Assembly: GCF_054482525.1 (NCBI RefSeq)
Contig: NZ_CM137006.1
Strand: one strand, 5' to 3'
DNA length: 64,000 nt
In this document: one piece after another, positions 10,389 through 11,868 of the stretch
Numbering within the stretch: the first letter of the stretch is position 1
Layout of the letters: the number at the start of each line of letters is the position of its first letter
Program-made: the position numbers and the translations under genes
The notes under the pieces: generated by a model
The model's database searches: none
What the model saw: the letters and a program-made list of their open reading frames with translations, nothing else
Told to the model about the DNA's origin: nothing

Positions 10389-10413
10389 CTTGTAGGCCGG
10401 ATAAGGCGTTTAC
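10389..10413. repeat. left half of a REP/PU split by the IS insertion (ends in TAC target duplication)
   Basis: gtaggccggataaggcgtttac immediately before the IS left end; right half gccgcatccggc follows the IS. Confidence 0.8.
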
Positions 10414-10445
10414 TGAACTGAACCCCAAAACCTGGACAGTTTCAG

Positions 10446-11321
10446 TTAACCGGCTTTTTGATGCTCAGTCCGGTATTCTACCGGACTGAGTCCCCCAAGA
10501 CTGAGTTTTATTCTTTTTTGATTCCAGTAAGTTATGTATTCGTTAACGGCATTTTCCAGCTCTTCTACATTTCTGTAGTCCCGGCGATAGTACATTTCTT
10601 CTTTCAGGTGACCAAAGAAGTTCTCCATTACCGCATTATCAAGGCAGTTGCCCTTGCGCGACATGCTCTGCACTAACCCTCTGTCCGCCAGGGCGGACTG
10701 ATAACTTTTTATCCGGTAATGCCATCCTTGATCACTGTGGAGCAGCGGTTTCTCCCCTTCAGCAAGGCTTTCCAGCCCCTTATTTAACATCCGCTTCACC
10801 AGCTCCTCTGTAGGCCTGCAGGCCGTTTCCCACGCCACGATTTCCCCGTTAAACAAATCAAGTATCGGGGACAGGTACAGTTTTTGTCCGCCAGCCCTGA
10901 ATTCGGTGATATCTGTCACCCATTTCTCACAGGGAGCTTCCGCTTTGAACTGCCGCTGAAGGATATTTTCTGCAGCGAGTCCCATATTTCCCCGGTAAGA
11001 CCGGTATTTCTTCAGGCGCACAGGAGACTTCAGGCCGAGCTGTTGCATCAGTTTTCGCACCGTTTTGCCACTGAACTTAAGACCTCTTTTCTGAAGCTCA
11101 CAATGGATCCGCCGGTACCCATAACATCCCCGGTGTTCATGGAAGATGGAGGCTATGAGCTGTTTCACATCAGCATACTTGTCCTTAGCCTTCTGCAGTG
11201 ACAGCTGGTAGTACAGCGTGCTTCTGGCCAGCCCTGCAGCCTTTAACAGGTCAGACTGGCAGTGTCCGCACCTCAGGCTCCGGATGACTTTCGTTTTTTC
11301 TCCAGCTCCTGGCGCTTTTTT
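10446..11321 (-). CDS. IS3-family transposase OrfB (DDE integrase domain), expressed as OrfAB fusion by -1 frameshift
   Basis: ORF with HSDQGWHY ... SRKGNCLDNAVMENFFGHLK integrase-core motifs; -1 frame continues upstream to the slippery heptamer at about 11315-11321. Confidence 0.85.
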   Translation of the reverse strand, partial: KKAPGAGEKTKVIRSLRCGHCQSDLLKAAGLARSTLYYQLSLQKAKDKYADVKQLIASIFHEHRGCYGYRRIHCELQKRGLKFSGKTVRKLMQQLGLKSPVRLKKYRSYRGNMGLAAENILQRQFKAEAPCEKWVTDITEFRAGGQKLYLSPILDLFNGEIVAWETACRPTEELVKRMLNKGLESLAEGEKPLLHSDQGWHYRIKSYQSALADRGLVQSMSRKGNCLDNAVMENFFGHLKEEMYYRRDYRNVEELENAVNEYITYWNQKRIKLSLGGLSPVEYRTEHQKAG

Positions 11322-11794
11322 TCCAGGAGATGCTCCTGCATGGCTTTCAGATATGCATTTTCTGCGCGAAGATAACGCAGCTCATTCTTCATCTCTTCCG
11401 GCGTCATGTTTGCCTCGTTTTCATGGGTATCATCAGAACGGGTCATGCTTTTCTCCTTCCTGCGCCTGATAAAGGCCTCATTACCAGATTTGCGGTAGCC
11501 TTTTATCCAGTTTTTAACCGTGTTGTGGCTGGGAATGTTAAACCGGGCAGCTACCCGGGGTAGAGACTCAGAATGCCCGAGAGCATAAAGAACCACGCAA
11601 AGTTTATCTTCAGGAGAATAGCTACGCTTGTGTCTGCAATCCAGTGCCCGAGGACCGTGAAGAAGAAAAAGATTAATCCAGTGTGAGAGGCTGGTGTGAG
11701 AAAGTTGAAAGAGTTTTGCCGTAGAAATGATGCCTGCATGACCAGCCAGGTAGTGATTTACAGCGGCAAGTTTTACTTCAAATGAATGTTTCAT
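11273..11794 (-). CDS. IS3-family transposase OrfA (HTH / leucine-zipper)
   Basis: 173-aa ORF MKHSFEVKLAAVNHYLAG ... ending KKRKSSGA; contains the A_AAA_AAG heptamer near its 3-prime end. Confidence 0.85.
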   Translation of the reverse strand: MKHSFEVKLAAVNHYLAGHAGIISTAKLFQLSHTSLSHWINLFLLHGPRALDCRHKRSYSPEDKLCVVLYALGHSESLPRVAARFNIPSHNTVKNWIKGYRKSGNEAFIRRRKEKSMTRSDDTHENEANMTPEEMKNELRYLRAENAYLKAMQEHLLEKKRQELEKKRKSSGA

Positions 11795-11845
11795 AAACTG
11801 CACCTTCAGATGTCAGATTATGTCCAACATTTGGGGTGCAGTTCA

Positions 11846-11868
11846 TACGCCGCATCCGGCATGAAACG
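11846..11868. repeat. right half of the REP/PU split by the IS (starts with TAC duplication)
   Basis: tacgccgcatccggcatgaaacg. Confidence 0.8.

Follow-up and report, generated by a model that had tools for sequence, protein, structure and literature searches.

A complete IS1397 copy in the loop of a REP palindrome between livF and ugpB of Escherichia coli

The livF–ugpB intergenic region of the Escherichia coli DNA analyzed here, a stretch of 64,000 nucleotides that is referred to as the window, almost certainly carries a full-length copy of IS1397 (IS3 family) that appears to be functional and that entered the livF–ugpB BIME by transposition into the loop at the center of a canonical REP. 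The span of 10389–11868, as delimited in a first-pass annotation, comprises the element together with both REP halves. The features of the element and its target are as follows.

10327–10355: partner REP GCCTGATGCGCTGCGCTTATCAGGCCTAC, head-to-head with the targeted REP (regex scan)
10392–10413: left half of the targeted REP, GTAGGCCGGATAAGGCGTTTAC, ending in the left TAC copy
10411–10413: direct repeat TAC, left copy
10414–11845 (transposase on the minus strand): IS1397, complete 1432-bp copy, 100% full-length identity to RefSeq-annotated IS1397 copies
10414–10438: IRR, right terminal inverted repeat (orfB end), outermost bases TG on the plus strand
10446–11794, minus strand: OrfAB transposase coding region, 449 aa after the predicted −1 frameshift (RefSeq joined CDS with the same coordinates)
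11273–11794, minus strand: orfA, 173 aa, DNA-binding HTH protein (ATG at 11794, stop at 11273–11275)
11315–11321, minus strand: slippery heptamer A_AAA_AAG in phase with the orfA frame, programmed −1 frameshift site
11821–11845: IRL, left terminal inverted repeat, upstream of orfA
11846–11848: direct repeat TAC, right copy
11846–11861: right half of the targeted REP, TACGCCGCATCCGGCA

Structure and identity of the inserted element

The element is bounded by imperfect terminal inverted repeats of 25 nt (TGAACTGAACCCCAAAACCTGGACA and TGTCCAACATTTGGGGTGCAGTTCA), which are complementary at 21 of 25 positions (84%), and its termini read 5'-TG...CA-3'. The inverted repeat sequence occurs once in the 64-kb window, compared to no occurrence in 100 shuffles. 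The TAC duplication that flanks the element cannot be extended to 4 bp, and the empty sites of K-12 MG1655 and CFIAFB20140388 contain a single TAC. The boundaries were found again as they had been read in the first-pass annotation, namely a 1432-bp element with imperfect inverted repeats of approximately 25 bp, TG...CA ends, and a 3-bp TAC repeat. The arms on either side of the insertion, GCCGGATAAGGCGT (10396–10409) and ACGCCGCATCCGGC (11847–11860), are complementary to each other. When the element and one TAC are deleted, the restored site reads GTAGGCCGGATAAGGCGTTTACGCCGCATCCGGCA and matches the reverse complement of the canonical E. coli REP at 35 of 35 positions (Tobes and Pareja, PMC1525189, Additional File 15), which agrees with the earlier proposal that the insertion lies in the loop of a REP palindrome and that its removal, together with one TAC, rebuilds an intact REP. 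The partner REP is located 36 bp to the left of the targeted REP in head-to-head orientation, whereby 10342–10355 and 10392–10405 form an inverted repeat with 93% complementarity. Therefore, the target is one palindromic unit of a BIME downstream of livF. Within IS1397, two perfectly complementary 12-bp arms around a loop of 3 nt (CTCAGTCCGGTA ttc TACCGGACTGAG; window positions 10464–10490) form an inverted repeat that overlaps the last orfB codons approximately 25 bp inside of IRR. An Rfam search yielded no match in or beside the element.

The two-ORF layout that had been proposed before was recovered as orfA and orfB on the minus strand in frames 0 and −1. Fusion of both frames at the A_AAA_AAG heptamer yields an OrfAB of 449 aa ending at 10446, whereby the frameshifting itself is predicted from the sequence; the extent of the fusion equals that of the RefSeq CDS in strain PCN033, the locus of which is 100% identical to the window. 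OrfAB matches the NCBIfam model NF033516 (IS3 family transposase) over all model positions (1–369 of 369) with a score of 387.2 bits, the cut-off being 160. The Pfam domains of the protein are HTH_28, which occurs twice, HTH_21 (6e-17), and the rve core (7e-21). The latter is accompanied by a DD(35)E+K catalytic motif with the spacing D295-59-D355-35-E391 and K398 at position +7 after the E. RNA folding around and downstream of the frameshift site was no better than that of shuffled sequences (z = −0.79), and a stimulatory structure is not claimed here.

The whole 1432-bp element is 100% identical to many chromosomal copies in complete E. coli genomes, and in RefSeq/PGAP all of these bear the label “IS3-like element IS1397 family transposase,” their CDS being joined and marked “programmed frameshift.” Copies covering at least 80% of the element are present in 1,707 of the 5,426 complete E. 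coli genomes. The general architecture is that of the IS3 family: the length lies within approximately 1.2–1.55 kb, the inverted repeats are imperfect with TG...CA ends, the ORFs are arranged in frames 0 and −1 with an A_AAA_AAG heptamer, and the transposase shows the rve domain, the DD(35)E+K motif, and the NF033516 match, together with a duplication of 3–4 bp at the target. The TG...CA inverted repeats, the −1 frameshift at A_AAA_AAG, the HTH plus rve/DD(35)E composition, and the 3–4-bp repeats are likewise shared with IS3, IS150, IS911, and IS2. The first-pass assignment to the IS3 family as an IS1397-like element is supported by the full-length identity to RefSeq-labeled copies and by the NF033516 score, which is far above the cut-off. 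It might be argued that the element is a distinct REP-targeting member of the IS3 family, for example an ISKpn1-like one, that has been loosely labeled by RefSeq and is not IS1397 proper. The RefSeq wording “IS1397 family” would allow for this. We consider such a mislabeling highly improbable: 1432 bp is also the size of IS1397, the element resides in E. coli and targets REPs of the E. coli type, and the 1,311 records with at least 99% identity together with 2,159 records at 95–99% identity point to one element family. In addition, IS1397 is among the multicopy E. coli insertion sequences according to Touchon et al. The name IS1397 as used here is based on the RefSeq label, the length of 1432 bp, and the REP targeting that is attributed to IS1397 (PMC1525189), and not on the ISfinder reference sequence. 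This IS1397 copy is probably active, since its inverted repeats and ORFs are intact and it is identical to the commonest copy. The plasmid collection contains essentially no full-length copies except for mis-filed chromosomes (three records with at least 80% coverage), so that a plasmid origin is not suggested.

Insertion of IS1397 into REP palindromes

Insertion of IS1397 is specific to E. coli REPs, as has been shown experimentally, and the specificity is attributed to the transposase (PMC1525189; PMC3184786). The experiments on REP targeting date from 1999 to 2003 as cited in PMC1525189, which refers to Bachellier et al. 1997, Clement et al. 1999, and Wilde et al. 2001/2003 as sources on IS1397 and gives an example from CFT073, in which the cut is at the same central REP position (Additional File 13). 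For comparison with the livF–ugpB copy, 15 further IS1397 sites were retrieved: trmL–cysE, caiE–caiF, yjgA–mpl, entD–fepA, gudD–barA, rhlE–ybiA, cysM–yfeS, fadR–ycgB, metJ–yiiX, uvrB–yvcK, ygcQ–ygcP, msrQ–zinT, an rrf-adjacent site, znuB–ruvB, and yiaT–aldB. All 15 are intergenic and lie inside a REP. At 14 of them, removal of the IS and of one copy of the duplication (3 bp at seven sites and 4 bp at seven sites) restores the REP palindrome with the duplication in its center. For nine of the 16 sites, the query contained REP flank, which biases this part of the sample towards REP-associated copies; a query with the IS alone gave the other seven sites, and these are in REPs without exception. 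The window contains approximately six REPs in 62.6 kb, and REP centers make up only about 0.05% of positions. Chance is therefore excluded as the cause of the association.

The sites also differ in how the element is oriented. The REP arm GTAGGCC(G/T)GATAAG adjoins the orfB (IRR) end at seven of the eight sites found without flank bias. That IS1397 always takes the same orientation relative to the REP was considered and rejected, as the msrQ–zinT copy (G749, extracted locus 301–1732) is reversed; the orientation of IS1397 relative to the REP is strongly biased, not obligatory. The yiaT–aldB copy (MS 69-1, extracted locus 301–1732) has no target duplication; on one side it adjoins the head arm of a Z-type REP and on the other that of a Y-type REP. 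This arrangement implies that a recombination or rearrangement took place, either between IS copies or inside a BIME.

By analogy with established IS3-family biology, ribosomes would slip by −1 at A_AAA_AAG, such that OrfA with its HTH is fused to OrfB with the DDE core to give OrfAB. OrfAB may then copy the element out via a circular intermediate with abutted inverted repeats, and a DDE-type integration with a 3–4-bp staggered cut, followed by repair, would leave the TAC duplication. The IS1397 transposase would be the component that recognizes the REP and sets the cut in the REP loop. Most IS3-family members have a loose target preference, whereas IS1397 is restricted here to REP loops. REPs are also targeted by IS621 (IS110 family) and by ISKpn1 and ISPsy8 (IS3 family) (PMC1525189; PMC3184786). 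However, IS621 inserts on the 3' side of the REP and outside of the inverted repeat (PMC3184786), and ISKpn1 and ISPsy8 use REPs of other species, whereas the present element is found in the palindrome center of E. coli REPs. No difference from IS1397 was detected, since the element shares with it the full-length identity, the size of 1432 bp, the location at the REP/PU center within BIMEs, the exclusively intergenic position, and the 3–4-bp duplications; livF–ugpB is simply a rarely occupied site. IS1397 behaves here as described between 1997 and 2003, and the feature is in this respect already known and ordinary.

Occupied and empty livF–ugpB sites among E. coli genomes

In K-12 MG1655 and in CFIAFB20140388, the livF–ugpB spacer is uninterrupted and the two window flanks join at one TAC copy within an intact REP, so that the earlier statement that the element is absent from the K-12 spacer holds for MG1655. 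The comparison was extended to 5,426 complete E. coli genomes, of which 4,630 contain the reconstructed empty site as one contiguous match (at least 80% coverage). The occupied state was detected with a junction probe in only ten genomes, namely PCN033, SCU-102, ST70, WP4-S18-ESBL-07, TUM14759, E300010, 19KM1776, M114, UID2309220033, and strain 135. Because of these numbers, the element is regarded as an insertion that is rare at livF–ugpB. The opposite polarity would require that the occupied state is ancestral and that the uninterrupted REP of most genomes is the product of precise excision. Direct support for this was not found; the close IS-free flank haplotype of CFIAFB20140388 (99.8% identity) is compatible with either direction. 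We give such an excision practically no credence, as intact sites outnumber occupied ones by 4,630 to ten, the site after restoration matches the canonical REP perfectly, and the identity of the IS copy to copies elsewhere implies a recent transposition. Moreover, precise excision that removes exactly one copy of the direct repeat is rare for DDE insertion sequences. Other variants of the spacer were seen as well: FCI1 carries a Phd/YefM-Doc toxin–antitoxin pair between livF and ugpB, and in the sampled O157:H7 genomes the match to the reconstructed empty site is limited to the 134 bp next to ugpB.

Carriers of the insertion occur in at least two backgrounds. Between the window and the ST70-like carriers WP4-S18-ESBL-07 and UID2309220033, there is one single difference across 9944–13335, a block of 3.4 kb that takes in the 3' end of livF as well as the IS and ugpB. 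Beyond this block, the same two strains differ from the window at approximately 35 positions per kb on the left and approximately 15 per kb on the right. This distribution of differences suggests that the IS-bearing allele has moved between divergent lineages by homologous recombination on a tract of approximately 3.4 kb. An independent, recurrent insertion into the same loop was judged less likely than one event followed by recombination, because the 3.4-kb block differs at a single position and its flanks at approximately 15–35 positions per kb.

In approximately 1,780 complete genomes, the sole IS1397 match is not full-length. The records of this kind that were sampled, including MG1655, contain only a 65-bp piece of the IRR end. 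MG1655 is usually described as being without IS1397. Its 65-bp piece has 95.4% identity, is located between yhhJ and yhhI (extracted locus 1501–1565, outside of the window), and directly abuts a half REP (ggccggataaggcgttta|TGAACTGACCCC...) beside the ISEc1/H-repeat transposase gene yhhI. It looks like a relic of an old IS1397 insertion.

Neighboring genes and significance of the insertion

The livF–ugpB intergenic region is a hot spot of structural variation. The livF stop (10265) is 148 bp upstream of the element, and the ugpB start (12098) is 252 bp downstream of it. Because this position is intergenic, the REP is split with no gene being disrupted. The 252-bp stretch in front of ugpB has been retained and includes a promoter-like match at 11962–11990. 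A CTGTCAT-type repeat around position 11960 resembles the Pho-box consensus. An effect on ugp is not expected. One could imagine that the split REP at the liv 3' end, together with 1.4 kb of inserted DNA whose IRL lies 252 bp upstream of ugpB, alters liv mRNA stability or ugp regulation and that the allele spread on the tract of approximately 3.4 kb as an advantageous one; we regard this as unlikely.

Further repeats and RNA genes were noticed elsewhere in the window. The ugpB–ugpA spacer (13415–13575) is approximately 80 bp longer than in K-12 and contains CCCTC/GAGGG-rich inverted repeats (CCCTCACCCTAACCCTCTCCC / GGGAGAGGGCCGGGGTGAGGGG), where K-12 has a REP pair; these repeats are boxC-like, and the spacer represents another repeat polymorphism in the same operon. 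Rfam matches at the gathering threshold correspond to the sRNAs RyhB (20120–20184) and ES036 (CssrF; 37459–37501), whereby the last few bases of the ES036 match overlap a REP with its start at 37498.

The IS boundaries, the target duplication, and the REP target had been readable from the raw sequence in the first-pass annotation, and this reading was borne out by the comparison with other genomes. The locus provides a clean pair of an occupied and an empty site and a textbook case of a target-specific IS3-family element, with little import beyond correct annotation. With 10 carriers among 5,426 complete genomes, the insertion could serve as a rare marker for the tracing of lineages or of recombination.
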